NCBI GenBank assembly: GCA_965215195.1
Contig: CBDCDC010000002.1
Span: 3,616,001 to 3,680,000, forward strand
DNA length: 64,000 nt
Origin: Candidatus Latescibacterota bacterium
GTDB lineage: Bacteria; Latescibacterota; UBA2968; UBA8231
Reading direction: 5' to 3'
Part shown: positions 1 through 15,701 of the stretch, piece after piece
Numbering within the stretch: the first letter of the stretch is position 1
Layout: each line of letters starts with the position of its first letter
The notes under the pieces: model-generated
The model's input: only the letters and a program-made list of their open reading frames with translations
The model's database searches: none
Told to the model about the DNA's origin: nothing
Position numbers and translations under genes: made by a program

Positions 1-1096
1 CTAGATAGCCCCCGATACCCGAGTTGGCTCGGGGCACCGCCACCAGCCGCCCCTTGACGAACAAGCCCTTCACCACATTCCAATAGTACGGGTCGTCAAA
101 ACGCGAAGCACCCTGTGCGACGCCGTCCCCCAAGTCAAAATAGGCCGTGAATATCGGATGGTCTTCCCGCAGGCGTTCGGTGTAGAAATCGCGCCCTTTG
201 ATCAGCCCCCCGTATTTTTCTAGGGCCTCGGTCCAGAATCCGTCGAAGTCGAATTGCTCGGCCATGACAAAGCCCCCGGCCAGCAGGTAGTGCGCCAGAT
301 TCTCCAACTCGTTTTCGTTGGGTTCGCCTTGGGGGATGATGATCGGCACCGTTAGAAAGCGGTTGTCATCAAAGGTAAAGCTGCCGACGAACTCGGCTCG
401 CAAGCCGGTCCACTCGTTGAGCACATCGCGCAGAATGTCGATTTCCCGATTGTTGAGCCCACCATCGACGACATTGGTCTGGGTTTCGGCCATATACGTG
501 GCCGAAACCACGCGGGCGAATTTGACAAAGCCCTTGAGTCCCTGCTTGTCGTTGGGATCCTGTATCACCAAGGCGCGGTAGCGGCCGGTGTCCATGGCAT
601 CGACATCCAGCATCTCCAAGCCCATGTCGATTTTATGCTCGGGCATGCGGCTGATCCTCACGTTCGCTGTTACCCTCACGACCGGTTCCAGCGTCGCCCG
701 GAACGCCTGTGAGTTGTCCTGTCCGATTTGGAGCATATTCGCTATGCCGGTCGAACGAGCGATGATGGCGCGCGTGGAGAACGCTGCGGTAGCTTGCACC
801 TGATCCATGCGGGCGGCAGCAGCGCGCACTTGGCGGCGGATCATCGGGCGTTTGCGTTGGGGAATTTTGCGCAGCTCCAGCGCCTTGGTCAGGCGCGGTT
901 GGCGTTTGACGAATTTGGTGGTTAGCGGCCGGGGCGCTTTTTCCGCCTGCTGCTGGAAGGGGTTGAGCAAGACCAAGATCGCGTTCAGCAGCACGGCGAG
1001 CCCCAAGGACAGCCAAAAAAATTTGCGCAGCGGGCTGAGCAGAGCATTGAGGTCCAAGTTAGCGGTGATGCGCACAAAACGCGACGGTCGGTTCAT
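1..1096 (-). CDS. DUF4159-like domain protein, 3' end beyond window edge
   Basis: Open frame read manually from ATG at 1096 (MNRPSRFVRITANLDL...) to the window edge; N-terminal TM segment, then ...ELENLAHYLLAGGFV...DHPIFTAYFD...GLFVKGRLVA typical of DUF4159. Not in the ORF track because it has no stop in the window. Confidence 0.7.
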   Translation of the reverse strand, partial: MNRPSRFVRITANLDLNALLSPLRKFFWLSLGLAVLLNAILVLLNPFQQQAEKAPRPLTTKFVKRQPRLTKALELRKIPQRKRPMIRRQVRAAAARMDQVQATAAFSTRAIIARSTGIANMLQIGQDNSQAFRATLEPVVRVTANVRISRMPEHKIDMGLEMLDVDAMDTGRYRALVIQDPNDKQGLKGFVKFARVVSATYMAETQTNVVDGGLNNREIDILRDVLNEWTGLRAEFVGSFTFDDNRFLTVPIIIPQGEPNENELENLAHYLLAGGFVMAEQFDFDGFWTEALEKYGGLIKGRDFYTERLREDHPIFTAYFDLGDGVAQGASRFDDPYYWNVVKGLFVKGRLVAVPRANSGIGGYL

Positions 1097-2047: not shown

Positions 2048-3181
2048 CTACCCCACCCACTCACGTGCCTGCCTCCTCATCTCCTCCCGAGGCAGCCCCA
2101 GAATCTCGGCGGCGCGCCCGAGTGAGATGTGCTCCTGTTCGAGTGCCTGTCTCACGAGCCGCGAGAGGCGATCCTCGACAAAGTCGTGCCGGGAGAGGCC
2201 CTCTGGCTCACCGGAGCGACTCCAGTTCCAAGCAAACTCGCTTCTTTTAAGTGCTTCGGGTTCTTCAGTTCTGCGAAGTGTCTTGCCGAAGTAACTGCGA
2301 TGCTGGCGCTGGAATGCACGCCAAATATCCGAGGTTGCACGGCCCGACTCGACTAGCCGATAGAGCACGGTTTTGTAACTCACTCGGAAGATGCGCTTGA
2401 CCTTGAGGACGCGGACGAGGAGCGGGAGTCCTCGGGTCTCGTCCCACTCGGACGCAAACGCGGCTTCTGGCATTAGGAAATGGCTTGCAAAGGCGTCGGC
2501 CTCGCGCTCTGTCTGCACGGGGAGTTCGGTGGCGTCGCGCCGATACTCAGCGGGGTGGAGCAACAGATGGCCGAGTTCGTGTACCGCGGTGAAGATCCAG
2601 CGCTCCACCGAGATACGATCCCAAGTATTGACCACCACGGCAGGGCCGCCGTCCCCTGCACCGACGCTCAACCCGAAGAAGGAGTCGCTCTTCTTGTCGA
2701 GCAGCAGGAGCTTCACTCCGTTGCTTTCGAGCAACCCGCAGATGTCGCGCACTGGCTCTTCTGGCCCGAGCCCGATGGCTTTGCGTGCGGCCTGTGCGGT
2801 TTTCATAGGGCTCCCGTGCCGAATGCGAACAGCCTTGAACCGGAAGGGACACGACTGGCCGAGATCGGCTTCGACTTGGGTATAGGCGTCAATCCACTTT
2901 GCGATCTCGGCCAAGATCTGCGCCCGAGCGTGGACCCGTGCCTGGGCGCGGAATCGCACGGTTTCAAGGGGCCGAACAGGCGTCACGAGATCGCCGAGTG
3001 GAACGCCTAGCGCGTCCCCTAGAGCGACGAGGGTCCGGGCGCGTGGGACGACGATGCCTCGCTCGATCTTTCCGAGCGCGACCCGCGAGAGTCCCGCCCT
3101 GCGGGCGAGTTCCTCTTGGGTCAACTGCCGGTCCAGCCGCAGCCGGGCGATATTCGCGGCAATGTGCTCTTCACCAGCCAT
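2048..3181 (-). CDS. XRE-family HTH fused to ImmA/IrrE (M78) metallopeptidase
   Basis: HTH LTQEELARRAGLSRVALGKIERG; HExxH motif AVHELGH followed by EREADAFA; start moved to ATG 3181, preceded by GAGGAG RBS. Confidence 0.9.
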   Translation of the reverse strand: MAGEEHIAANIARLRLDRQLTQEELARRAGLSRVALGKIERGIVVPRARTLVALGDALGVPLGDLVTPVRPLETVRFRAQARVHARAQILAEIAKWIDAYTQVEADLGQSCPFRFKAVRIRHGSPMKTAQAARKAIGLGPEEPVRDICGLLESNGVKLLLLDKKSDSFFGLSVGAGDGGPAVVVNTWDRISVERWIFTAVHELGHLLLHPAEYRRDATELPVQTEREADAFASHFLMPEAAFASEWDETRGLPLLVRVLKVKRIFRVSYKTVLYRLVESGRATSDIWRAFQRQHRSYFGKTLRRTEEPEALKRSEFAWNWSRSGEPEGLSRHDFVEDRLSRLVRQALEQEHISLGRAAEILGLPREEMRRQAREWVG

Positions 3182-3212
3182 TGTTTCTCCTCGTAGGGTA
3201 TTTGAGCAACTC

Positions 3213-3241
3213 TTGACAAAATTATCATCTTTTCTCATTTT
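3213..3241 (+). promoter_or_regulatory. Candidate sigma70 promoter / operator region of the MBL operon
   Basis: Perfect TTGACA at 3213-3218 and a weak -10 (CATTTT) 17 bp later, in an AT-rich divergent intergenic region. Confidence 0.4.
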
Positions 3242-3344
3242 TAACAAATGATACTTTATTGGTCAGTCCTGGAGAGACTAGGATTGAGGCCAGTAGAGTT
3301 CCGCCGATGAACAAAGAATCAAATATGATAAGGGAGAACAAGAG

Positions 3345-4451
3345 ATGACACCAAAATTAACATCTTATCCGCTCGGTAATGCCGACTGCTGTCTAGTCAA
3401 ACTAACCGACGGCCGCGTTATCGTTATGGATTTCGCGGCAACCAGAGGAGATGAGGAAAATGATCTCCGTATCGACCTTCCGAAAGCCCTTCGCGAAGAC
3501 CTTGGCACACGTGATGATGTCGACGTGCTGGCCATTTCGCACCTCGATGAAGATCATTATAAGGGGGTCAGCGACGTTTTCTTTCTAAACCATGCCACCA
3601 AGTATCAGAGCGATGACCGCATCAAGATCGGAGAACTTTGGGTCCCCGCCGCCGTTATCGTAGAGGAGTCGCTCGAAGCGAAGGAGGCCAAGATCATCCG
3701 GGCCGAGGCACGTCACAGGCTCAAGGAGGGTAAGGGTATCCGCGTCTTTTCACGTCCTGAAGCCCTTGAGGAATGGCTCAACCAGCAGGGCTTGAGGCTC
3801 AGGGATCGAGCGCACCTCATCACCGACGCAGGGTGCCTCGTACCGGGGTTCTCGTTCGCATCCGGTGGAGTAGAGCTCTTTGTTCACTCGCCGTTTGCGG
3901 AGTCGGCCTCTGACGGCCGCGAGATCGTGAGAAATTCTACTTCGCTTGCGCTGCAAGCAATGTTCAAGGTTGGCGGGCGATTGACCCGTGTCTTCTTTGG
4001 TGCCGACCTAGACCACGAAGCTCTCGCTGGAATCGTCACCGTGACCAAAGCACGCGGAAACGAGAGCCGCCTAGAATACGATGTCGTGAAGTTGCCCCAT
4101 CATTGCAGCTATCTCTCACTCGGACCTGAGAAGGGAAAGACCTCGACGGAGCCTGTTCCAGAGGTCGAATGGCTCTACGAGAACCAAGGTCAATCTAGAG
4201 CAATCTTGGTGTCGTCCAGCGACCCCATTCCGCCCACGGAGACGAATGATCCTCCTCACCGACAGGCAGCCAATTACTATAAAAAAGTCGCCGACAATCT
4301 CCGGGGAGAGTTTGTCGTGACGATGGAGCACCCCAAAAAGAGCGTCCCAGAGCGACTGATCATTGAGATCGGGAGTTCGGGCGCGTCCCTAAAGAAGAAA
4401 GTCATGGTGGGTGCTCCGCTCGTAAACCGCCCAGCACGGCGAGCGGGCTGA
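3345..4451 (+). CDS. Metallo-beta-lactamase-fold hydrolase (ComEC/Rec2-like) with C-terminal Gly
   Basis: GNADC, SHLDEDHYKG (HxDxDH), GADLD and KLPHHCS motifs; ends ...RPARRAG; GGGAG RBS; stop overlaps the next start (TGATG). Confidence 0.85.
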   Translation: MTPKLTSYPLGNADCCLVKLTDGRVIVMDFAATRGDEENDLRIDLPKALREDLGTRDDVDVLAISHLDEDHYKGVSDVFFLNHATKYQSDDRIKIGELWVPAAVIVEESLEAKEAKIIRAEARHRLKEGKGIRVFSRPEALEEWLNQQGLRLRDRAHLITDAGCLVPGFSFASGGVELFVHSPFAESASDGREIVRNSTSLALQAMFKVGGRLTRVFFGADLDHEALAGIVTVTKARGNESRLEYDVVKLPHHCSYLSLGPEKGKTSTEPVPEVEWLYENQGQSRAILVSSSDPIPPTETNDPPHRQAANYYKKVADNLRGEFVVTMEHPKKSVPERLIIEIGSSGASLKKKVMVGAPLVNRPARRAG

Positions 4452-6664
4452 TGAAGGGGGATAGCTGGGTCGTGGCAAGAGGCGAGCCGTGCGACGACAG
4501 CACCTCGTTTGCTCCCCGTGCTCGCAAGTTGGCCGAACTTCTGCGAGCAAGCGAGATTCCTTTTGCCCGTCTCGTATCCCTCTCCAAGACCGAAGATACA
4601 GATATCGTTACGCTTGAGGTCGACGTTGAGCTTGCCCAAGATCGCATTCACGATATCCGTCTGCAAGAGCGGATAGCGGCCGAATTCCCGCATGATGACG
4701 CACGAGCACCGGAGGTACTTGCCCTACGCCGTTCCTTCCCTCTTGTACCGCATCTGAATTTATGCGATGCGGAAATCCCTCGTAGTCTTTGTCTCTTTGA
4801 AGATTCTTGGCATGAAACCCAGCTCTGGTGGACGCCTGGACGCTTCGTAGAAGCCCTTCGCAATTGGCTCGCCGCAACTGCGCGAGATGAGTTGCATGCC
4901 GACGATCAGCCCTTGGAGCCACTGCTGCTGGGTACAGGTATTCCGCTTATCGTGCCAGCGAATATCGGGGAGGAAAACGGACCTGTCCGTCTCGACGTGA
5001 TCCACATCCAAACGCCTGAGATGAAACGGCCCGTTCTGGTGGCTCGGCGTCCGGAGGACATCGAGGATATTGGGCAAGAGCACGTCATATACTCCGTAGC
5101 GACGGTCCTCGTCGGTAAAGAGCAAAAGCATGGCATCATCTCACGTACGCCACGTACGCTCGCAGACCTCCGCGATCTGCTTTCGGCCGCAGAAATCGAC
5201 CTCGTTACAGAACTTGTATCTCGACTCGAGAAGTGGAGAGAGAACAAGGAACTCCTGGGCCGAAAACCGATCCTAATCACGGTTCTGCCCAAGCTCCGAA
5301 AGAGCGGCGGAGCCGTAGAGGCGACGGACATTTTTGCGTTCTCTATCGACGAGACAGTCGCGACACTTGGAGAAAAGCTCGGTCTATGGCAAATGAGAGA
5401 GGGACACGCCTGCATTCTGATTCCTCAAGAAAATCCAAACCCTGACGCAGTCAGGCTAGTATGCCTTCACCCGGTATCTGAGCTCTCGATGCGAATAGCA
5501 GCCCGTGCTGCTGGACGAGATCCAGATCTGCGTAAGGCAGTGGCAGTTGGACAAGGGGCCCTCGGTTCGCAAGTTGTGTCCAACCTGAAACGGACGGGGT
5601 TTGGTTTATGGACGCTTATTGATCACGATGTGCTTTTGCCTCATAATCTCGCACGACACGCGTTGTTCGGTTGGAAGCGGGGCTTCCCGAAGGCCCAGTG
5701 TATGGCAGCGGAGCTAGCGGCCACGGTCCAAGACTCGAAGGTACAGGCCCTCGTCTGCGATGTGCTCAAGCCAGGAGATAAGGAGACAGATCTCGCCGTG
5801 GCTCTTAATGAGGCGGAGATTGTCTTCGATTTCTCCGCGTCCACCGCAGTGGCGCGGTATCTCGCAGATGATACTTTCTCGAAGGCACGGCGAATATCGG
5901 TTTTTTTGAGTCCAAGCGGCAGATACCTCGTGATGCTTGTCGAAGATACCGCCCGAGCAGTCACGATTTATGAACTGGAAGCTCAGTTCCATCGGCTTCT
6001 TATTCGAACGAAAGACCTCCAAGAGTTCTACCAAGAAAATCCCGCATCACTTCGATACGGCGGCTCGTGCGCCGATATCTCGATGCACATACCCCAAGAT
6101 CGCGTGGCGCTCCATGCGGCAATCACGGCAGGCGCAGTGCAGCGACTCACAGCAGGAGCGCTCGTCTCAGTTTGGCATTTGACGGACGAGCTCACAGTAG
6201 AGCACCACTGCTCACAGGGGGCAGCCTGCCGGTGGTTCGAAGGATCGGGATGGAAGGTGGGCATTGATGCACATCTTGTGACCGACCTTATCGCTCGTCG
6301 ATCTCAAGGTTCGCCATCTGAGACGGGTGGCGTCCTCGTCGGTACGGTGGACGCACATCGCAAGAGTATTCTTCTTGTGGATGCGTTACCGGCTCCCCCC
6401 GATAGCGAAAAATGGCCAACGGCATTCATCCGAGGCTCAGTGGGACTTTGCAAGGACGTAGAGAAAATCGAAAAATGGACAGGTCAAGCCGTACACTACA
6501 TAGGGGAATGGCACTCACATCCTTCAGGTATATCGTTGGAAATGAGTTCTGACGATAAGCAGGTTCTAGAGTTCGTCGCCAAGCACATGCGGTCGGAGGG
6601 ACTTCCGGGAATTGTACTGATCGTTGGGGAGACAGAGATTCAGTGTCACATCAAAGCTCATTAA
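4451..6664 (+). CDS. E2-E1(ThiF)-JAB fusion protein (Cap2/Cap3-like)
   Basis: E2-like PHLN...SLCL; ThiF GQGALGS and DHDVLLPHNLARH, with GGSC as candidate E1 Cys; JAB ETGGVLVG...YIGEWHSHP...SSDD. Confidence 0.9.
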   Translation: MKGDSWVVARGEPCDDSTSFAPRARKLAELLRASEIPFARLVSLSKTEDTDIVTLEVDVELAQDRIHDIRLQERIAAEFPHDDARAPEVLALRRSFPLVPHLNLCDAEIPRSLCLFEDSWHETQLWWTPGRFVEALRNWLAATARDELHADDQPLEPLLLGTGIPLIVPANIGEENGPVRLDVIHIQTPEMKRPVLVARRPEDIEDIGQEHVIYSVATVLVGKEQKHGIISRTPRTLADLRDLLSAAEIDLVTELVSRLEKWRENKELLGRKPILITVLPKLRKSGGAVEATDIFAFSIDETVATLGEKLGLWQMREGHACILIPQENPNPDAVRLVCLHPVSELSMRIAARAAGRDPDLRKAVAVGQGALGSQVVSNLKRTGFGLWTLIDHDVLLPHNLARHALFGWKRGFPKAQCMAAELAATVQDSKVQALVCDVLKPGDKETDLAVALNEAEIVFDFSASTAVARYLADDTFSKARRISVFLSPSGRYLVMLVEDTARAVTIYELEAQFHRLLIRTKDLQEFYQENPASLRYGGSCADISMHIPQDRVALHAAITAGAVQRLTAGALVSVWHLTDELTVEHHCSQGAACRWFEGSGWKVGIDAHLVTDLIARRSQGSPSETGGVLVGTVDAHRKSILLVDALPAPPDSEKWPTAFIRGSVGLCKDVEKIEKWTGQAVHYIGEWHSHPSGISLEMSSDDKQVLEFVAKHMRSEGLPGIVLIVGETEIQCHIKAH

Positions 6665-6679
6665 AGGGTCCATCGGTAA

Positions 6680-8020
6680 GTGCTCATGTACGATCTCGGA
6701 CTTGCGTTGTCTGGAGGTGGGTCTCGCGCCGCAGCATTTCATTGTGGAACGATCTCTGCGCTTTCGGAACTGCATCTAATTGACAAGATAGATGTTGTTT
6801 CTACGGTATCTGGCGGATCGCTCTTTGGTGCTGCTTGGGTGGCAGCAAAGGTAGATGGACAGAGTGTAAGAGAGTTCACTGATAGTATTCAGGAAGAACT
6901 TTCGTGCGGGTTCATTGCTAGGTCGCTCAGGCCGTCTCTGCTCCGCGTGCTGATTCCTAAAGCACCGTACTCGCGAACTCATTTGCTCGCGGATACCTTT
7001 GCTCGCGTTTTGTTACAGGGACTTACGCTAGGGCATCTGCCCGAACGCCCGGCTTTGTGTATAAACACGACGGTATTGAACAACGGCCAGATAGCTAAGT
7101 TTTCACGGGACGGATTCTCGGCCTGGGGAATTACTGTCCCCGGAGCCAAACCATCCCATGTAGTGCCTTGGAGCAACTTTTCCTTAGCGCGTGCTGTCGC
7201 TGCCTCCGCTGCGTTCCCAATCGGCCTTCCACCGCTAACTTTGCGGCTGAGAGACTTCCCACCCGGAACGCAATTTAGTGGCTCATTGGCTGGGGTGAAG
7301 AAAATTTACCTTACTGACGGTGGTGTGCTTGAGAACCTCGGCATTCAGACTCTTTTGAAGAGCCGACGCTATGCCTCATGGAACCTTGTTGTGAGCGATG
7401 CGGGTGTCCATGACCGACCTTGGCAGAATCGAGGGCTTGTTGGTTCGGTCAAGGGTTTCTGCATGTGGCTCTTAAGCGGACGGACCCTTGATCGGCTCAT
7501 GCTAGTGATGAACGACAAGCAGAACCGCTGGGCAAGACAGGAGATTCACGATCAATTGATTCACTCTTGGCTCGCCGAAGAGTTGCGACATGGCTCAACC
7601 GTGCCGAACAAGGGGATAGCGAGCTATTTGGACCAAGAGCCGAAACGCAGACGGCGTGCACTCTTGTTTGTTCGCGTGGCACAGAGTTGGAACTCCTTCT
7701 TTCGTTCAATCCCAAGATGGAGGCTCGTAGAGCTCGGCGGGCATGCTGGGGAGTCCGAAGCCGCGATACCTTCGAATGACGATCCCGCACGTATCGTCGC
7801 CTACTTGGAAGGAGTTGGTTGCGACCTCACTACTGCAAAAGAGTACCACGCGCAACTAGGAGGAGATAATGCTGCTCACAGGATGAACACAGTGAAGACT
7901 GGATTCACTGCCTTATCCCCGGAGACTGTGCAGCGTCTTGCAGCACATGCAGCTTGGCAAGTTCACGCTGCGCACTCCATCTACATGCCCCTCCAAGACG
8001 GCAAGATTATGTTTACCTGA
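6680..8020 (+). CDS. Patatin-like phospholipase
   Basis: LALSGGGSRAA oxyanion motif, TVSGGS nucleophile elbow, ASAAFP, and DGGVLENLG catalytic Asp. Confidence 0.9.
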   Translation: MLMYDLGLALSGGGSRAAAFHCGTISALSELHLIDKIDVVSTVSGGSLFGAAWVAAKVDGQSVREFTDSIQEELSCGFIARSLRPSLLRVLIPKAPYSRTHLLADTFARVLLQGLTLGHLPERPALCINTTVLNNGQIAKFSRDGFSAWGITVPGAKPSHVVPWSNFSLARAVAASAAFPIGLPPLTLRLRDFPPGTQFSGSLAGVKKIYLTDGGVLENLGIQTLLKSRRYASWNLVVSDAGVHDRPWQNRGLVGSVKGFCMWLLSGRTLDRLMLVMNDKQNRWARQEIHDQLIHSWLAEELRHGSTVPNKGIASYLDQEPKRRRRALLFVRVAQSWNSFFRSIPRWRLVELGGHAGESEAAIPSNDDPARIVAYLEGVGCDLTTAKEYHAQLGGDNAAHRMNTVKTGFTALSPETVQRLAAHAAWQVHAAHSIYMPLQDGKIMFT

Positions 8021-8123
8021 GACAGTACCATTCGACAATTGGACGCTCCTTTAACCGACAATCGGACGCTGGACGCTCCCTGTTTCCCCGCTCGCTGGCA
8101 CCCGTCCTACGGGAGGCTTTAGT

Positions 8124-8336
8124 GTAGTCCTTACCCAAGGCCGAAAGACTTAGGGTATTGAGGTCAAAGTCGCCAGTGCGCTCACCTCCAAAGACGGGCA
8201 AGGACTTGTGCGGCTGGCCGATCGCTGCGGCGAGGATTTTGAGCTTGGAGTGCTGCTCTACGCCGGCCGCGACCGGCTCCCGTTGGCCGACGAGCGCATA
8301 CTCTCCGTGCCGCTGAGCGAATTGTGGGAGCGGTAG
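8124..8336 (+). pseudogene. C-terminal fragment of an AAA ATPase/DUF4143 protein
   Basis: Manual translation VVLTQGRKT*GIEVKVASALTSKDGQGLVRLADRCGEDFELGVLLYAG...PLSELWER*; internal TAG, no start. Confidence 0.65.
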
Positions 8337-8448
8337 GGTGTGCGGCTCTCCCAAAGGGGCCGTTGACTGGGAGAAGACTCTAGGCGTAACTAAACACGGT
8401 CGGCTGATCGATGGCCGCCATGCATACCAGATTGTGAACCGAGGAGAC

Positions 8449-10398
8449 GTGAAAAAACTCATCGCCAACGCCCCAGAGACGCGCTCGGCCGATGTCATCG
8501 CCGGGAACATCGAACATCTGAAGGCCCTGTTCCCCGAAGCGTTCACCGAGGGCAAGATCGACTTCGAGGTGCTCAAGCAGCTTCTCGGCGGCGTGGTTGA
8601 CGAGCGCGAGGAGAAGTACGGTCTCAACTGGCACGGCAAGCGCCAAGCGCGGCAGCTTGCCCTGACGCCGAGCACCGGAACTTTGCGCCCGTGCCCCGAG
8701 GAGAGCGTCGACTGGGATACGACTCAAAACCTGATGATTGAGGGCGATAACCTAGAGGTGCTCAAGCTCTTGCAGAAGAGCTACGCCGGGAAGGTGAAGC
8801 TGATTTATATTGATCCGCCGTACAACACGGGAAAGGACTTCGTCTATCCCGACGACTACCGGGACAACATGCAGAATTATCTGGAGTTGACGAGACAGAC
8901 TGACGGCGAGAACCAAAAGCTGTCGTCGAATACAGAGGCATCGGGGCGATTCCACACAGACTGGTTGAACATGATGTATCCACGGTTGAAGGTCTCAAGG
9001 AATTTGCTGGCAGGTGACGGTGTAATACTCATTTCCATAGGTGACGAGGAAATACATAATCTGAGAGTAGTATGTGACGACATTTTCGGCTACGAAAATT
9101 TCTGCGGTATCTTCATATGGGAGAAGAAAAAGAAGCCTTCTTTCCTTGATCGAAACATGGGCACCGTCACAGATTACATCGTCTCCTATGCAAAAGACCG
9201 CTCACAATCTCCCGCCTTCACAACCGGATCAGTGGAAGAAGAAAAAAAGTATCCCTTTAACAATGCGGGAAACAACATGGCAGTACTGGAGTTTCCAGCA
9301 GGAAGCGCGACCTTCGGCCTAAGTGATCAAACCATTACAGCTCAGGACATGTCGGAAGGGAACATCAAGACAGAATTGCTCGATGATGTTCGCATTGTGA
9401 AAGGAAGGAACAGCGACGCGTTTCGACTGCGTGGGGAATGGCGGTACTCGCAGTCCAAACTCAACGAGTTCGTAGCCTCCGGTGCGGATATTATGATCAG
9501 CAAAGTTCCTTTCCGTCCCAACTACGTGAACCGATCGGGTGAACAGAAGAAGACAGCGAACCTTCTTTCCTACAGAATCAACGCCATGCAGACCAATGAA
9601 GATGCCACGCAGCAGGCACGAAAAATCTTCGGCGAGGATGTCGTCTCCTATCCTAAGCCCGAGGGCTTGCTCAAGTATCTGATAGGAGCCGTATCACGAG
9701 AAAACGACATTATTTTGGATTTTTTCTCCGGATCAGGCACCACGGCTTCAGGCGTCTGGCGGCAAAATGCCGAGGATTCATGCTCTCGACGATTCATCCT
9801 AGTGCAGTTGCCCCAATCGCTCGACACGAAAAACAAGACTCATCGGGCTGCGGCCGACTTTTGCGATCAAATTGGAAGACCTCGCAATTTGGTGGAGTTG
9901 ACGAAAGAGTGGCTGCGTAGATCCGCGGAACAGATCAGGCAGGAAACACCGCTCTTCACGGGCGATTTTGGTTTCTTGGTTCTCAAGCTCGACACTTCGA
10001 ACATTCGATCTTGGATCGCGAAACCTGACAATCTTGAGCAATCTATCCTTGAACATGTTGAAAACATCAAGGAAGATCGTACCGATCAGGACATTCTTTT
10101 TGAGCTCATGTTGAAGATGGGCTTTGATCTCTGCATGTCCTTCGAATCGCGAATGATCGCAGGCAGAGTTGTGTACTCAGTCGGCACTGGGACGCTGTTT
10201 GCATGTCTCGACCAGCATATCGTCCGGGAGAAGGTCGATTCGCTGGCCCTCGGTATTGCCGAGTGGCACAAGCAACTCGAATCCGAGGGCGACGCCACGG
10301 TGATTTTTCGAGATAGTGCCTTTGAGGATGACATGGCTAAGACGAACATGGCAGCCATTTTGGAGCAACACGAACTCGGGAATGTGCGGAGCTTGTAG
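8449..10398 (+). CDS. mod: Type III R-M methyltransferase (Mod)
   Basis: IEGDNLEVLK, IYIDPPYNTG, YPKP and DFFSGSGTT motifs; GTG start at 8449 after GAGGAG. Confidence 0.93.
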   Translation: MKKLIANAPETRSADVIAGNIEHLKALFPEAFTEGKIDFEVLKQLLGGVVDEREEKYGLNWHGKRQARQLALTPSTGTLRPCPEESVDWDTTQNLMIEGDNLEVLKLLQKSYAGKVKLIYIDPPYNTGKDFVYPDDYRDNMQNYLELTRQTDGENQKLSSNTEASGRFHTDWLNMMYPRLKVSRNLLAGDGVILISIGDEEIHNLRVVCDDIFGYENFCGIFIWEKKKKPSFLDRNMGTVTDYIVSYAKDRSQSPAFTTGSVEEEKKYPFNNAGNNMAVLEFPAGSATFGLSDQTITAQDMSEGNIKTELLDDVRIVKGRNSDAFRLRGEWRYSQSKLNEFVASGADIMISKVPFRPNYVNRSGEQKKTANLLSYRINAMQTNEDATQQARKIFGEDVVSYPKPEGLLKYLIGAVSRENDIILDFFSGSGTTASGVWRQNAEDSCSRRFILVQLPQSLDTKNKTHRAAADFCDQIGRPRNLVELTKEWLRRSAEQIRQETPLFTGDFGFLVLKLDTSNIRSWIAKPDNLEQSILEHVENIKEDRTDQDILFELMLKMGFDLCMSFESRMIAGRVVYSVGTGTLFACLDQHIVREKVDSLALGIAEWHKQLESEGDATVIFRDSAFEDDMAKTNMAAILEQHELGNVRSL

Positions 10399-10947: not shown

Positions 10948-13911
10948 ATGAAATTCCACTTTGAACCCAACCTCGACTACCAACTCCAAGCCATCGAAAC
11001 AGTCTGCGACCTGTTTCGCGGCCAAGAGATCTGCCGTACTGAATTCACGGTCACGCGCAATGCGGCGAATGCTCAGGCTGGCCTCGGCTTTGCGGAAAGC
11101 GATCTGGGCACCGGCAATCGGCTGAGCCTGCCCGACGATGAGGTGCTCGCAAACCTAAACGATGTCCAACTCCGCAACGGCTTGCCTCCCTCGGCGGCCT
11201 TGAACTCGGGCGATTTCACCGTGGAGATGGAGACTGGCACCGGCAAGACCTATGTGTACCTGCGCACCATCTTCGAGCTAAACAAACGTTACGGCTTCAC
11301 CAAGTTCGTCATCGTCGTGCCGTCGGTCGCCATCAAGGAAGGCGTGTACAAGTCGCTCCAGATCACCGACGACCACTTCCGCGCACTCTACTCGGGTACG
11401 CCTTTCGAGTACTTTCTCTACGACTCGGCCAAGCTCGGCCAAGTGCGAAACTTTGCCACCAGCCCGCAGATTCAGATCATGGTGGTGACGGTTGGTGCTA
11501 TTAACAAAAGGGACGTCAACAACCTCTATAAGGACAGCGAGAAGACGGGCGGCGAAAAGCCGATTGATCTGATCCGAGCCACGCGGCCCATCCTCGTCGT
11601 TGATGAGCCACAAAGCGTGGATGGCGGTTTGCGGGGGCGCGGCAAAGAAGCCCTCGCCTCCATGAATCCTCTCTGCACGCTGCGCTACTCGGCGACACAC
11701 GCAGACCAGCACCACATGGTCTATCGGCTTGATGCGGTAGATGCTTACGAGCGCAAGCTAGTCAAGCAGATCGAAGTAGCATCGGCGACGGTCAAGGACG
11801 CCCACAACAAGCCCTACGTCCGCTTGGTCTCAACGCGCAACCAGCGCGGCACGATCAGTGCCAAGATCGAACTTGACGTCGAAATAGCGACTGGAGTACG
11901 ACGGCGAGAGATCAATGTCCAAGATGGCGACGATCTCGAACAAACCACCGGACGTGCGACTTACCGCGACTGCCGCATTGGCGAAATCCGCGTCGAAAAA
12001 GGCAACGAATTCGTCGAGTTGCGCGTACCCGGCGGTGAGCACTTTCTCCGGTTGGGAGAAGCCTACGGCGACGTAGATCATCTCGCTGTCCAGCGCGAGA
12101 TGATCCGCTGCACCATCCACGAGCATCTCGACAAAGAGAAACGCCTGCGCCCACAGGGGATCAAAGTGCTCAGCCTGTTTTTCGTCGATGCGGTAGAACA
12201 CTATCGGCAGTACGACGACGAGGGCAATTCTGCTAAAGGGGAATATGCCCGAATTTTTGAGGAGGAGTATCGGCGTCTGGCGAGGCATCCAGACTTTGGT
12301 GACGTGGCTCTCGACGTGCCCGCAGAAGATGTCCACAACGGCTACTTCTCCATCGACAAAAAGGGCGGCTGGACAGATACCGCCGAGAACAATCAGTCCA
12401 ACCGCGACAACGCCGAACGAGCCTACAACCTGATCATGCGAGACAAGGAGAGACTCCTGAGCCTAGAGACGCCGCTCAAGTTCATTTTTTCGCACTCGGC
12501 CTTGCGCGAAGGCTGGGACAATCCCAACGTCTTTCAGATCTGCACCCTGCGCGACATTCGCACCGAGCGCGAGCGACGGCAGACCATTGGGCGCGGCCTG
12601 CGCTTGTGCGTCAATCAAGAGGGCCAGCGTCTGCGCGGCTTCGAGGTCAACACGCTCACGGTCGTTGCCACGGAGAGCTACGAGGAATTTGCCGAGAACC
12701 TCCAGCGGGAAATCGAGACCGACACCGGCATCCGCTTCGGCGTCGTGGAGGCGCATCAGTTTGCGGCCATTCCGGTCGTTGGCACAGACGAACAGACGAT
12801 GGCTCTCGGTTCCGAAGCGTCGCAGCATTTGTGGGAACATCTGCAAGCAGAGGGGTATATAGACGCGGCAGGGAAAATCCAAGACTCCCTCCGAGTGGCA
12901 CTCGAGACCGACACCCTCATCTTGCCCGATAAATTCGCCGATCAGTGCGAAGACATCGGCAAGGTGCTACGCAAGTTCGCCGGGCGTCTAACAATCAAAA
13001 ACGCCGACGAGCGCCGCCCAATCCGCCCGCGCCGAGCCGTCCTCCAAAGCCCGGAGTTCAAGGCACTGTGGGACCGCATCAAGCACAAGACCACGTACCG
13101 CGTCGAGTTCGACAACGAGGCGCTGCTCGCACACTGCATCCAAGCACTTGGCGATGCGCCGCCGATCCCAAAGGCCCGGCTCCAGTGGCGCAAAGCCGAC
13201 ATCGCCATCGGCCAAGCAGGAGTCGGGGCGACCGAACGCGAGGGGACGGCAACCGTGGTGCTGGACGAGGCCGATGTAGAGCTACCCGACGTGCTTACCG
13301 AGCTTCAGGACCGCACGCAACTCACGCGCCGCAGCATCCACCGCATCCTCTCGGAGAGCGGACGCCTCGCCGACTTCAAGCGCAATCCACAGCAATTCAT
13401 CGCTCTCGCCGCGCAAGCCATCAACCGCTGCAAGTGCCTCGCCTTGGTGGACGGCGTCAAGTACCAGCGCCTCGGAGACGAGTACTACTATGCACAGGAA
13501 CTCTTTGAGAACGAAGAATTAACCGGCTATCTGAAGAACATGCGTCCGGGAACCGAGAAATCGGTGTACGATCAGGTCGTGTACGACTCCGAAATTGAGA
13601 AATCCTTTGCCGGCCAGTTGGAGAAAAACACTGCGGTCAAGGTGTACGCCAAGCTGCCGGGATGGTTCACGGTGTCGACGCCGCTTGGAAGTTATAACCC
13701 GGACTGGGCCGTGCTGATTGAGCGCGACGAAGACGAGCAGCTATACTTTGTGATTGAAACGAAGGCCAGCCTGTTCGCCAGCGATCTGCGCGATGCCGAA
13801 AGCGCCAAGATCAAATGCGGTGAGGCGCACTTCGCCGCGCTCAAAGTGAGCGAATCGCCGGCGGAGTACCGAACGGCTCGCTCCCTAGACGACGTATTGG
13901 CTAGCAGCTAA
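10948..13911 (+). CDS. res: Type III R-M restriction endonuclease/helicase (Res)
   Basis: METGTGKT, DEPQ, LREGWDNPNVFQIC, QTIGRGLR and C-terminal NPDW...ETK nuclease motif. Confidence 0.93.
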   Translation: MKFHFEPNLDYQLQAIETVCDLFRGQEICRTEFTVTRNAANAQAGLGFAESDLGTGNRLSLPDDEVLANLNDVQLRNGLPPSAALNSGDFTVEMETGTGKTYVYLRTIFELNKRYGFTKFVIVVPSVAIKEGVYKSLQITDDHFRALYSGTPFEYFLYDSAKLGQVRNFATSPQIQIMVVTVGAINKRDVNNLYKDSEKTGGEKPIDLIRATRPILVVDEPQSVDGGLRGRGKEALASMNPLCTLRYSATHADQHHMVYRLDAVDAYERKLVKQIEVASATVKDAHNKPYVRLVSTRNQRGTISAKIELDVEIATGVRRREINVQDGDDLEQTTGRATYRDCRIGEIRVEKGNEFVELRVPGGEHFLRLGEAYGDVDHLAVQREMIRCTIHEHLDKEKRLRPQGIKVLSLFFVDAVEHYRQYDDEGNSAKGEYARIFEEEYRRLARHPDFGDVALDVPAEDVHNGYFSIDKKGGWTDTAENNQSNRDNAERAYNLIMRDKERLLSLETPLKFIFSHSALREGWDNPNVFQICTLRDIRTERERRQTIGRGLRLCVNQEGQRLRGFEVNTLTVVATESYEEFAENLQREIETDTGIRFGVVEAHQFAAIPVVGTDEQTMALGSEASQHLWEHLQAEGYIDAAGKIQDSLRVALETDTLILPDKFADQCEDIGKVLRKFAGRLTIKNADERRPIRPRRAVLQSPEFKALWDRIKHKTTYRVEFDNEALLAHCIQALGDAPPIPKARLQWRKADIAIGQAGVGATEREGTATVVLDEADVELPDVLTELQDRTQLTRRSIHRILSESGRLADFKRNPQQFIALAAQAINRCKCLALVDGVKYQRLGDEYYYAQELFENEELTGYLKNMRPGTEKSVYDQVVYDSEIEKSFAGQLEKNTAVKVYAKLPGWFTVSTPLGSYNPDWAVLIERDEDEQLYFVIETKASLFASDLRDAESAKIKCGEAHFAALKVSESPAEYRTARSLDDVLASS

Positions 13912-14155: not shown

Positions 14156-14210
14156 GGCTAGCAGTTAAGCCTGTTGCCTAATGCACGCACCTTGTACAAA
14201 GGAACCCACC

Positions 14211-15701
14211 ATGACCGACCGCCCCAACATCCTCGTCATAATGACCGACCAGCAGCGCGCCACGGCCAGCCACCTCTACGGCAACACCTTTTGCCAAACC
14301 CCGGCCATGGAACGCCTAGCCGCCGACGGAGTGCTCTTTGAGAACGCAATCACCCCGCACCCGCTCTGCGTGCCGGCGCGCATCTCGTTTTGGACCTCCC
14401 AGTTTCCCCACTCGCACGGCGGCCGCCGCAACCAGACCTTGATGCCGGCCGGTGCCACGCACACTTGGCAGCTTTGGAAAAAGGCCGGCTACGCCACGGG
14501 TCTGATCGGCAAAAACCACTGCTTCGAGCGGGAAGAGGATTTGGCGCTTTTCGACGTGTGGAACGCCTTTACCCACGGCGGGCGCGACGAGGGGCCACAG
14601 ACGCGGGGCATGGACTGGTTCCGGCCGGAAGAAGGTCGCCGCAAGGTCGCGGCCGAGCATCGCCAACTCACCCATCAGAACCCCCGCTTTAGCTACGGCA
14701 CCTCCGAGTTGCCGTTAGAGGACCACTCCACCGGGCTAATCGCCGGGCAGACGACGCGCTTTCTCGAAAAGTACCAAGACCAGCCCTTTGCCCTGTGGGT
14801 TTCCTTTCCCGATCCGCACGAGCCGTGGCTGTGCCCAGCCGAGTACGCGGCCTTGTTCCCGCCCACGGCCATTGACCTGCCTCCTTGGCGCGATGGCGAG
14901 TTCGACGATGAGCGCGCCCCCGAGCGCAATCGGGTGCTCTACCAAATGCTGGGGGTGCGCCGCGATCCGTCCGAAGACCTCTACGGCGTCATGGCCTCGT
15001 ACTTTGGCATGGTGCGCTTTATCGACGACGCGCTCGGCCAAATACTCGACAAGCTCGACGAACTGGGGCTGCGGGAGCAGACGATTGTGGTATTTTGTTC
15101 GGACCACGGCGACTTCATGGGCGAACACGCCATGCAGTGCAAAGGCGGCGTTTTCTACGACAGCCTGACGCGGGTGCCGCTGATCGTCTCTTGGCCCGGA
15201 CAGGTCGCCGCTGGCGTCCGCGACCAGAGCATGGCCAATCTAATTGACGTGGTGCCGACGCTGTTGCACTTGCAGGGGCTGGCGCAGCCGCGCTCAATGC
15301 ACGGAGCACCGCTACCCACCGCGACCGAGGCCGCACCTCGGGAGGCGACCTTTTCCGAATACGGCAGCGGGGGGCCGCTCTTTACCATGGCCGATCTGGA
15401 AAAACTGCCGCAACCTTGGGGCCGCAAGACCCTGATCGACACCTTGCAGTGGCGCGAGGCGGCTGGCCGGTGCAAGATGGTCCGCACCCGTCAGTGGAAG
15501 TACGTCCACGACCCCATGGGCGACCGCGACGAACTCTACGACCTCGTCGCCGATCCCGGCGAGTTGGTCAATGTGATCGACGAGGAGCAACATTGCGACG
15601 CCCTCGCCGCCATGCGCCTGCGGTTAGCCGACTGGAGCATCAACACCGAGGACGCCCGGCCAGTGCCCCTGCCTGACCGCGCCCACTACGAGCTGGCCTG
15701 A
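14211..15701 (+). CDS. Sulfatase-like hydrolase
   Basis: RPNILVIMTDQQR, CVPAR (CxPxR), GKNH, SDHGD; start set at ATG 14211 after AAGGA. Confidence 0.92.
   Translation: MTDRPNILVIMTDQQRATASHLYGNTFCQTPAMERLAADGVLFENAITPHPLCVPARISFWTSQFPHSHGGRRNQTLMPAGATHTWQLWKKAGYATGLIGKNHCFEREEDLALFDVWNAFTHGGRDEGPQTRGMDWFRPEEGRRKVAAEHRQLTHQNPRFSYGTSELPLEDHSTGLIAGQTTRFLEKYQDQPFALWVSFPDPHEPWLCPAEYAALFPPTAIDLPPWRDGEFDDERAPERNRVLYQMLGVRRDPSEDLYGVMASYFGMVRFIDDALGQILDKLDELGLREQTIVVFCSDHGDFMGEHAMQCKGGVFYDSLTRVPLIVSWPGQVAAGVRDQSMANLIDVVPTLLHLQGLAQPRSMHGAPLPTATEAAPREATFSEYGSGGPLFTMADLEKLPQPWGRKTLIDTLQWREAAGRCKMVRTRQWKYVHDPMGDRDELYDLVADPGELVNVIDEEQHCDALAAMRLRLADWSINTEDARPVPLPDRAHYELA

Follow-up and report, generated by a model that had tools for sequence, protein, structure and literature searches.

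Gene organization of the cluster

The analyzed window, a stretch of 64,000 nucleotides from the genome of a Candidatus Latescibacterota bacterium (contig CBDCDC010000002.1, positions 3,616,001 to 3,680,000), contains a compact cluster (~4.7 kb) of three genes encoding an MBL-fold hydrolase, a single-chain E2-E1-JAB protein and a patatin (Table 1). A preliminary description had reported these three linked genes, and the open reading frames are found exactly where it placed them, with gaps of -1 and 15 nt. The TGA of the MBL gene and the ATG of the E2-E1-JAB gene have one base in common (TGATG, a 1-nt overlap; gggcTGATGaag), and the GTG start codon of the patatin gene lies 15 nt past the TAA of the E2-E1-JAB gene (note that an alternative ATG is present two codons downstream).

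Table 1. Genes and other features of the 6A-MBL locus (positions in the window).
Feature	Position	Strand	Remarks
Divergent regulator	2048..3247	-	399-aa ORF; XRE-type HTH fused to M78 (ImmA/IrrE-like) peptidase
Imperfect inverted repeat	3219..3257		15-nt arms, 80% complementary, 9 nt spacing; divergent promoter region
MBL gene	3345-4451	+	368 aa; C-terminus ...LVNRPARRAG
Codons of flexible MBL tail	4392..4448	+	residues ~350-368, R366-A-G368 end; predicted adenylation/conjugation site
E2-E1-JAB gene	4451-6664	+	737 aa
Patatin gene	6680-8020	+	446 aa; GTG start

In an NCBIfam search, the MBL protein was assigned to 6A-MBL_enzyme (NF058524; 373 bits, cut-off 220) and the E2-E1-JAB protein to 6A-MBL cap2_3 (NF058523; 609 bits, cut-off 320). 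As both are equivalogs of the anti-phage 6A-MBL system, the core pair is already known, and the earlier assignment of these two genes to 6A-MBL was right; the designation "6a" corresponds to a row of Table 1 in Iyer, Burroughs & Aravind (2006), where an E2-E1-JAB protein and a specialized MBL are listed as occurring "usually with two genes". The absence of CD-NTase and ubiquitin-like genes noted before was borne out as well: no CD-NTase was detected with Pfam or PADLOC among nine ORFs spanning 1-15.7 kb, and no beta-grasp or Ubl family was matched with Pfam among the ORFs in or beside the operon. The sole SMODS match in the genome is ~1.2 Mb distant (C2:4826026-4826499). Judged from its sequence, the region 2048-8020 is a complete three-gene 6A-MBL anti-phage system, present in one copy in this genome. 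For the anti-phage activity of 6A-MBL, the citing literature refers to a 2024 study by van den Berg et al.

The divergently encoded regulator contains HTH_3 (residues 33-87) and Peptidase_M78 (residues 212-298) domains, and its true start may be an internal Met at ~3181. It was matched by the PADLOC models RmrA (9.6e-38), capP (1.7e-15) and capH (5.3e-5). Regulators of the HTH-M78 type are also present upstream of the related loci L002, L023, L024 and L025; the HTH and M78 parts form one chain here and are separate in L025. The inverted repeat between the regulator and the MBL gene is a candidate operator. A scan for promoters and terminators returned sites no commoner than in shuffled sequence. 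Directly after the trio, 318 nt past the patatin gene, type III Mod and Res genes follow; the trio is located in a defense island adjoining this restriction-modification pair. The idea that 8157-8336 is a remnant of a DUF4143-type ATPase was dropped, as Pfam gave no match at E <= 0.1.

The system is present in 5 of 61 related genomes, a patchy, island-like distribution. The relative L002 has an identical gene order (86-94% identity). This repetition, together with the occurrence of the arrangement in many distant loci (see below), shows that the trio is more than a chance neighborhood. Weak additional support comes from RNA-library contigs of a single study, which span portions of all three genes at 95-99% identity; they are possibly DNA-derived and come from a relative rather than from this strain. 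One of the four runs yielded no contig, and uncovered stretches of the operon are uninformative.

The MBL protein and its C-terminal tail

The MBL protein had no match in Pfam. It carries the metal motif H66-x-D68-x-D70-H71, and in an alignment of 44 sequences D29, H66, D70, H71, H252 and H253 are invariant and D68, H181 and D221 near-invariant. The AlphaFold2 model has a pLDDT of 91.8. Its top fold match in the PDB is the beta-lactamase-like domain of ComEC (9ic4; E 8.3e-14, TM 0.69 on the target, 18% identity), whereas a phmmer search of the PDB sequences found nothing, the similarity to ComEC being too low for sequence detection. The ComEC domain, in contrast, belongs to a DNA-uptake channel and possesses no conjugation tail. 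With PADLOC, matches were obtained to RTasMBL (6.2e-13), LmuA (2.1e-11) and Avs1a (2.9e-5), which represent MBL-type effector domains in DRT, Lamassu and Avs1. Given this likeness to effector-type MBL domains and to ComEC, the protein is explained no less well as a nuclease effector than as a signal generator.

The basic tail with a terminal Gly that had been noticed before is indeed present, and it is predicted to be disordered (pLDDT 45-47 across the final two 10-residue blocks). In the alignment of 44 MBL sequences, G368 is invariant and R366 near-invariant. The preliminary description had made conservation of the terminal Gly a test of its proposal, and conservation was found at two levels. 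A C-terminal G is present in 93 of 121 close MBL homologues, mostly as ...PRAG. In the metagenomes, an MBL ORF is located upstream of the E2-E1-JAB gene in 75 of 80 loci (the best 80 of 455 relatives), and all 75 of these MBL partners from the best 80 possess xRxG within the final 30 residues. The strict tail pattern is found in 73 of the 75 (40 stop at the Gly, 33 extend beyond it), and the remaining two from these best 80 of 455 loci have C-terminal YRVG or VRAG. Some loci encode a second, tail-less MBL paralogue, in which xRxG is absent (0 of 13).

According to Jenson et al. (2023; PMC10097602), the C-terminal Gly is needed for Cap2-mediated conjugation of cGAS. Similarly, a preprint from the Corbett laboratory (PMC11601596) counts "MBL pathways", like type II CBASS and Pycsar, among the systems that conjugate "their respective signaling enzymes". 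By analogy, the MBL protein is probably conjugated through Gly368. A complex prediction with residues 1-600 of the E2-E1-JAB protein and the MBL protein gave a score of 0.02, which points neither way on binding.

The E2-E1-JAB protein

Pfam domains of this protein are Prok-E2_A (residues 50-172), ThiF (364-473) and Prok-JAB (607-705). Its layout comprises the E2 domain (~50-172), a linker, the E1 adenylation domain (~354-487) with the catalytic Cys540 beyond it, and a JAB/JAMM peptidase (~599-735). In an alignment of 17 sequences, C114 (SLCL), C540 (GGSC), E624, H688, H690, S699 and D702 as well as the glycine loop of E1 are invariant; the Cys and His motifs earlier described as intact-looking thus all fall on invariant columns. 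PADLOC models for E1-E2 matched with E values down to 1.2e-28 and those for JAB down to 7.8e-22. In the PDB, the E1 part has its counterparts in the Cap2 chains 7tsq, 7tsx and 7to3, with E values from 1.6e-8 to 7.8e-8, and the E1 is of the Cap2/ATG7-like type.

The patatin protein

The third protein contains the Pfam domain Patatin at residues 8-225 (E 4.3e-22), followed by a helical region of ~200 aa beyond the catalytic core. The characteristic motifs of PF01734 are the oxyanion motif GGGxR/K, the nucleophilic Ser in a GxSxG-type motif, and the Asp in DG[GA]. In an alignment of 17 patatin sequences, G12-G13-G14-S-R16 and S44 are invariant and D213-G-G is near-invariant; S44 is located in T-V-S-G-G (TVSGGS), where Thr replaces the first Gly of the GxSxG-type motif. 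The structural model (pLDDT 74.8) has CapV (9kej, 5.3e-9), PlpD (5fya, 9.2e-9) and CapE (9ion, 2.3e-8) as its top fold matches in the PDB. CapV and CapE are nucleotide-gated CBASS lipases; note, though, that PlpD and plant patatin score on par with CapV in this search. A sequence search of the PDB with the patatin gave no match, no PADLOC model (the CBASS phospholipase effector models included) was matched at E <= 0.01, and NCBIfam made no system assignment.

Third genes in related loci

A scan of genome contigs with a single protein as query gave one close relative, and therefore the broad survey was built on metagenome contigs and plasmids. The metagenome set consists of the best 80 of 455 relatives and is not a random sample, and the locus counts given here refer to these best 80. 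A patatin gene is present within 3.5 kb of the pair in 24 of the 80 loci. This amounts to 6.3 patatins per 100 kb near the pair vs. 0.56 per 100 kb in the farther flanks of these best 80 loci, an 11-fold difference. Of these 24 patatins, 15 are encoded on the strand of the pair and immediately follow it, and all of these 15 belong to Pfam Patatin. Many distant loci show an overlap of the patatin gene with the preceding one (gaps of -4 to -56 nt). A re-check with tblastn contributed nine patatins (convergent, upstream or with a wider gap) and four TM_A genes in the set of the best 80. In two loci, E2-E1-JAB and patatin are fused in one ORF (L025, with four Pfam domains, and L079, in the same frame).

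Apart from patatins, a protein of ~250 aa with four TM helices occupies the third-gene position in 23 of the best 80 loci, and other TM proteins are found there in 10 of them. The TM partners span at least five families (note that TM helices were called by a simple home-made hydropathy window). Taken together, the pair is accompanied by a patatin or a TM gene in 57 of the 80 loci (best 80 of 455). The patatin had been regarded in the preliminary description as an extra on a two-gene system; this does not hold, as most of the loci surveyed possess a patatin or TM gene as their third gene. In 12 of the best 80 loci, no third gene is present despite at least 900 nt of downstream DNA, and two-gene versions can also be found on Klebsiella plasmids and in Hymenobacter. 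The existence of these two-gene versions implies that the MBL apparently can suffice.

Plasmids of Gluconobacter, Bradyrhizobium, Agrobacterium, Roseomonas and Magnetospirillum likewise carry an annotated patatin gene next to the pair. Gluconobacter oxydans, whose plasmid pGOX1 carries the trio, was already named in the 2006 description. The trio recurs on plasmids of Alphaproteobacteria and in a relative titled Latescibacterota. The question raised earlier, whether other genomes conserve the patatin together with the pair, can be answered positively from metagenome loci, plasmids and the two fusions to E2-E1-JAB. Viral contigs contained nine relatives, and none of them was accompanied by a patatin at E <= 1e-4.

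On a tree of E2-E1-JAB proteins (FastTree, with some long branches), the third-gene type changes at least seven times for the patatin label and at least five times for TM_A, on well-supported branches. The "none" labels in this tree are partly wrong, since the tblastn re-check revealed additional patatins and TM_A genes (L068 and L099 have patatins). In summary, a patatin as third gene is a common and apparently undescribed component of 6A-MBL systems, and in the system studied here it is very probably an integral effector.

Comparison with known systems

With the 6A-MBL system of Iyer, Burroughs & Aravind, the locus shares the triple-module E2-E1-JAB protein beside a specialized MBL, in the same order and with the same translational coupling as in the 2006 description. 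However, 6A-MBL usually comprises two genes in that description and is represented by two component models in NCBIfam, whereas here a translationally linked patatin gene is the third. A review cites 6A-MBL as validated in P. aeruginosa. In the literature searched, which lay outside the primary experimental 6A-MBL paper, we found no description of a three-gene form with patatin and no mechanism for 6A-MBL, though the system is listed there as validated.

The similarities to the patatin-bearing form of type II CBASS (CD-NTase, Cap2, Cap3 and CapV; Ledvina et al. 2022, preprint; Jenson et al. 2023) are manifold: a ligase with E1 and E2 domains together with a JAB peptidase (fused here), a partner enzyme with a flexible tail ending in Gly, a patatin-fold effector (with CapV and CapE among its top PDB matches), modular effectors, and a CapH/CapP-like regulator, for which PADLOC nevertheless scores RmrA models higher. 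In contrast to type II CBASS, the operon has an MBL-fold hydrolase instead of a CD-NTase, and its patatin matches no phospholipase effector model of PADLOC at E <= 0.01.

Bil and Bub systems (Chambers 2024; Hor 2024; Ye et al., PMC11601596) possess similar E1/E2/JAB chemistry and occur in anti-phage or island settings. Their JAB proteins trim precursors, baring the C-terminal Gly (PMC11601596). However, they conjugate a dedicated beta-grasp Ubl, whereas no Ubl gene is present here and a 368-aa enzyme would be conjugated instead.

Finally, in some relatives of the system, rather than in this window, a gene directly after the E2-E1-JAB gene resembles a component of PDC-M48 (PDC-M48A, a small TM protein, and PDC-M48B, an MBL-fold protein): the tail-less second MBL of L076 matches PDC-M48B (1.3e-68), and a TM protein of L056 matches PDC-M48A (1.9e-64). 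The pairing of an MBL with a membrane protein is thus a shared trait, but PDC-M48 has neither an E2-E1-JAB protein nor the xRxG tail. PDC-M48 is a candidate system of PADLOC, and we know of no validation of it.

Proposed function of the system

We propose that the HTH-M78 regulator would keep operon expression at a low level until stress or infection provides a cue. The E1 domain would then adenylate Gly368 at the tip of the disordered MBL tail, and the MBL would be passed via thioesters at Cys540 of E1 and Cys114 of E2 and be ligated to a target. This ligation may prime the MBL in the way that the CD-NTase of type II CBASS is primed by Cap2. The JAB domain would undo the linkage and, in systems where the MBL extends past the Gly, would also trim the extension. 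The patatin would act downstream of the primed MBL as a cell-killing, membrane-degrading abortive-infection effector, switched on either by a small-molecule product of the MBL, the variant we prefer, or by direct protein contact or ligation. Other lineages swap the patatin for TM proteins, which suggests that the MBL holds the position of the CD-NTase. By this analogy, we consider it fairly likely that the MBL is a conjugated counterpart of the CD-NTase and the patatin an abortive-infection effector. More tentative is the idea that the patatin is gated by a diffusible product of the MBL, for which we would give somewhat less than even chances.

The evidence on the MBL itself has to be weighed against this proposal. 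The main effector could be the MBL, acting as a nuclease or phosphodiesterase of the ComEC kind whose activity or targeting is set by E2-E1-JAB-mediated conjugation, with the patatin as a parallel second effector or amplifier that is not gated by any MBL product. The PADLOC matches to MBL effector domains, the ComEC fold and the existence of two-gene systems are in line with this possibility, as is the validation cited for P. aeruginosa in a review alongside the curation of only two components in NCBIfam. It does not explain, however, why a self-sufficient nuclease should regularly need a patatin or TM gene (57 of the best 80 of 455 loci), nor why the third-gene partners are swapped in the manner of signal-gated effectors, and we regard it as unlikely. 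If a patatin or TM effector is a regular third component, the MBL looks like a CD-NTase counterpart and less like a lone nuclease.

A further possibility is protein-level control of the patatin, with the MBL ligated to or docked on the patatin, or the E2-E1-JAB protein keeping the patatin inactive, and with no diffusible signal involved. Lipase and ligase are tethered to each other in the two independent fusions of E2-E1-JAB and patatin, and no known signal-synthesizing domain was found in the operon with Pfam, PADLOC or NCBIfam. Nevertheless, an invariant Lys, as would be expected of a conjugation site, is absent from both the patatin and the TM_A alignments, and one MBL and ligase would have to recognize unrelated effectors (patatin and at least five TM families), which makes such control rather improbable. 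The least credible explanation is that the patatin is an unrelated neighbor, either a separate defense gene or a housekeeping lipase of the same island. Defense islands do crowd unrelated systems, as exemplified by the type III restriction-modification genes next to the trio, and the patatin is assigned to no system by PADLOC or NCBIfam. But the short gap here and the overlaps in many distant loci, the 11-fold enrichment near the pair in the best 80 of 455 loci, the fusions in two lineages and the recurrence of the trio on alphaproteobacterial plasmids and in a relative titled Latescibacterota all contradict it, and we strongly disfavor it.

As a membrane-acting third gene is common, 6A-MBL resembles a CBASS-type immunity centered on a metallo-hydrolase rather than on a nucleotide cyclase. 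It might even be the "type II" form of an unrecognized signaling immunity, in which a conjugation-primed MBL makes or unmasks a small-molecule signal gating interchangeable patatin or TM effectors, with PDC-M48-like pairs of MBL and TM protein as its "type I" form; this generalization is speculative, and we rather doubt it. If our reading of the three-gene system is true, the priming of an enzyme used like ubiquitin, via its C-terminal Gly, would reach past nucleotide cyclases, and two-component definitions of 6A-MBL, as in the NCBIfam release searched, would miss the effector. Such a system would involve a new second messenger or a novel route to switch on a lipase. If the signaling reading is true, the trio would make a good starting point for the discovery of the signal, because the patatin offers an in vitro read-out.

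A 6A-MBL pair with a patatin gene inside a defence island

Open reading frame (ORF) calls placed the three genes of the operon exactly where the preliminary description had them. The TGA of the MBL-fold protein gene and the ATG of the E2-E1-JAB gene overlap by one base (gggcTGATGaag), and the patatin ORF starts 15 nt downstream of the E2-E1-JAB TAA. The MBL protein has no Pfam match; it is assigned to the NCBIfam equivalog '6A-MBL_enzyme' (373 bits, cut-off 220). The second protein, with Prok-E2_A, ThiF and Prok-JAB in N-to-C order (Pfam), is assigned to '6A-MBL_cap2_3' (609 bits, cut-off 320), and the third has a Pfam Patatin domain. As both equivalog scores exceed their cut-offs, the pair is 6A-MBL, the assignment proposed previously.

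Features of the operon and its surroundings, in window positions
Feature	Position	Strand	Evidence or remark
DUF4159-like protein, flank	2-1096	-	
XRE-HTH and M78 peptidase fusion, divergent, upstream	2048-3247	-	Pfam; PADLOC RmrA, capP, capH models
Imperfect inverted repeat, 15 nt, between regulator and MBL gene	3219-3257		80% complementary
MBL-fold protein, 368 aa, C-terminus ...LVNRPARRAG	3345-4451	+	ORF, NCBIfam
E2-E1-JAB protein, 737 aa	4451-6664	+	ORF, Pfam, NCBIfam
Patatin, 446 aa	6680-8020	+	ORF, Pfam
In-frame stops	within 8022-8150		
Open stretch, 60 codons	8157-8336		ends 1 nt ahead of Mod ORF
Type III Mod, downstream	8338-10398		PADLOC MTase_III, 3e-206
Type III Res, downstream	10948-13911		PADLOC REase_III, E 0
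Sulfatase, flank	14181-15701		PF00884, 1.4e-47

Since type III Mod and Res genes lie directly 3' of the patatin gene, the region is a defence island; its flanking sulfatase and DUF4159-like protein look like ordinary chromosomal genes. The listed Mod ORF begins ~43 codons ahead of its profile match, so that the true start is probably later. The inverted repeat may be an operator. Pfam found nothing in the 60-codon stretch at E <= 0.1; it may be what remains of a gene.

The system is single-copy in the source genome. The only SMODS/CD-NTase match of this genome (G000:C2:4826026-4826499, locus L115; 1.8e-29) lies ~1.2 Mb from the window and is presumably part of a separate CBASS-like locus. Distribution among related genomes is patchy (cap2_3 above cut-off in 5 of 61). 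Two related genomes (G001:C1:6228921-6229966 and G003:C77:44680-46057) have an E1-like match adjoining a separate JAB-like one, both below the 6A-MBL cut-off; these may be split Cap2/Cap3-type systems.

In three of four runs of one marine study, RNA-library contigs 95-99% identical to the window cover the MBL gene in parts, the E2-E1-JAB gene at its start and a portion of the patatin gene; such contigs are no proof of transcription, and no record spans a gene junction by 31 nt.

Conservation of the MBL tail and of the catalytic residues

The MBL family is large (4029 matches among the candidates scored). A C-terminal Gly, nearly always in ...PRAG, is present in 93 of 121 MBLs (the query and its 120 best matches), and the remaining tails, as printed and uncounted, mostly have the same motif with a short extension. 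An MBL ORF precedes E2-E1-JAB in 75 of 80 metagenome loci (the best 80 of 455 relatives), and all 75 proteins carry xRxG within their last 30 residues. The strict tail pattern is found in 73 (Gly terminal in 40, followed by a few residues in 33), and the last residues of the other two are YRVG and VRAG. Alignment of 44 sequences showed G368 to be invariant, R366 nearly so, and the metal ligands D29, H66-x-D68-x-D70-H71, H181, D221 and H252/H253 to be conserved. The terminal Gly, earlier proposed as the site of conjugation, is thus a conserved feature.

The AlphaFold2 model of the MBL (pLDDT 91.8, pTM 0.90) has its last ~18 residues disordered. Of the PDB folds, the ComEC beta-lactamase-like nuclease domain (9ic4, E 8.3e-14) fits it best, followed by phosphodiesterases and CPSF/RNase J-type nucleases, with the anti-Pycsar enzyme Apyc1 at rank 33; the relatives of the protein in PADLOC are MBL effector domains of DRT, Lamassu and Avs1. 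With conserved ligands and a conserved tail that is disordered in a confident model, the MBL is an intact enzyme whose flexible tail ends in Gly. In type II CBASS, CD-NTases need such a tail if Cap2 is to conjugate them (Jenson et al. 2023).

The Cys/His motifs of E2-E1-JAB, described before as intact-looking, are indeed so: the E2 Cys (C114), the E1 Cys (C540), the E1 glycine loop (G367/G369/G372) and the JAMM residues E624, H688, H690, S699 and D702 are all invariant in a 17-sequence alignment. Solved structures related to it by sequence are Cap2 chains only. The patatin has an invariant oxyanion motif and Ser44, with Asp213-Gly-Gly near-invariant; its model (pLDDT 74.8) matches CapV, PlpD and CapE about equally, and it has no PADLOC family match.

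A variable third gene

In the same 80 metagenome loci (E2-E1-JAB 31-43% identical) a patatin gene lies within 3.5 kb of the pair in 24. TM_A, a family of ~250 aa with four predicted TM helices and no Pfam or PADLOC match, occurs in 23, and further small TM proteins, in five sequence clusters, in 10; TM helices were predicted by our own simple hydropathy window. Neither patatin nor TM gene was found in 23 loci, 11 of which have <900 nt of downstream DNA. Fifteen of the 24 patatins follow directly on the same strand (gaps -56 to +76 nt; 15/15 Pfam Patatin), five converge on the E2-E1-JAB stop and abut it, two have the same strand but larger gaps, one is just upstream of the MBL gene and one is fused to E2-E1-JAB; an additional patatin outside the 24 lies at ~3.6 kb. 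Up to 3.5 kb from the pair there are 6.3 patatins per 100 kb, versus 0.56 per 100 kb beyond, and the co-occurrence on which the added-effector proposal depended extends to plasmids.

E2-E1-JAB-patatin single polypeptides (~1170-1185 aa) adjoin an MBL gene in a genome of the same genus (L025:8868-12419, G021; four Pfam domains) and in a metagenome (L079:3960-7514; one reading frame). The MBL of the former ends in ...ERVGFGKYL, so that its Gly is internal. Two of the linked patatins, ~525 aa long, have a predicted TM helix at the end (L046:3845-5425, L053:4259-5830); in others, TM segments are predicted around residues 80-130.

Third-gene labels cluster on a FastTree phylogeny of 81 E2-E1-JAB sequences but require at least 7 changes for patatin and at least 5 for TM_A on well-supported branches. 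The window falls in a supported 15-row clade, 13 of which have patatin after re-check. TM_A genes overlap the E2-E1-JAB stop codon; the family (L023:7852-8604(-), L024:7953-8717(-) and 19 metagenome loci, alignment A3) has a conserved soluble middle with invariant W82, P87, N159, Y162, G163, R166 and N167.

A second, tail-less MBL gene often follows the effector gene (e.g., L076:9209-10099, L097:7455-8294, L040:10033-10851, L030:4653-5645, L023:7091-7777(-), L108:5602-6465). It matches PADLOC PDC-M48B (1.3e-68 for L076), with the same HxDxDH-type motif in many copies, and the TM gene of L056 matches PDC-M48A (1.9e-64). Such loci may represent a form with four genes; alternatively, an MBL and TM module that lacks the ligase may have docked beside 6A-MBL.

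Among 286 annotated plasmid records matching E2-E1-JAB (168 from Klebsiella), nine were inspected. Patatin is annotated beside the pair on plasmids of Gluconobacter oxydans 621H (pGOX1), Bradyrhizobium, Agrobacterium, Roseomonas and Magnetospirillum. A Deinococcus plasmid has a 225-aa hypothetical protein and then patatin, a Polaromonas plasmid a second MBL and a TM protein, and the inspected Klebsiella and Hymenobacter plasmids no comparable third gene. In Klebsiella pneumoniae NZ_CP092405.1 (L107) the pair has a divergent WYL regulator, a truncated Y-family polymerase ORF comes after it, and there is no patatin or TM gene.

Possible mechanism

The patatin belongs to the 6A-MBL system. In their behaviour, patatin and TM proteins resemble the interchangeable membrane effectors known from CBASS and Pycsar, and for this reason we read the MBL as holding the CD-NTase position. 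We consider it fairly probable that the E1 and E2 domains would conjugate the MBL through Gly368, that the JAB domain would release or trim it, and that the patatin would execute abortive infection.

The patatin could be switched on in more than one way. A diffusible MBL product would fit the variety of unrelated effectors, and direct protein control of the patatin would fit the E2-E1-JAB-patatin fusions. The MBL could also be a nuclease effector itself, as would suit its ComEC-like fold, its relatives of the Lamassu/Avs type and the occurrence of two-gene systems.

The 6A-MBL core is a known system. The name '6a' goes back to row 6a in Table 1 of Iyer, Burroughs & Aravind (2006; PMC1779556), an operon 'usually with two genes' that encodes the triple-module E2-E1-JAB protein along with a specialised MBL; Gluconobacter oxydans is among the organisms of that list. 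A review (PMC13276650) credits its anti-phage activity in Pseudomonas aeruginosa to van den Berg et al. (2024), and a preprint counts it among jumbo-phage defences. In the literature searched, to which van den Berg et al. (2024) did not belong, neither a patatin nor a TM component of 6A-MBL was found described. The architecture of three genes is real and widespread and, as far as this literature goes, undescribed; the third gene is the new part of the system.
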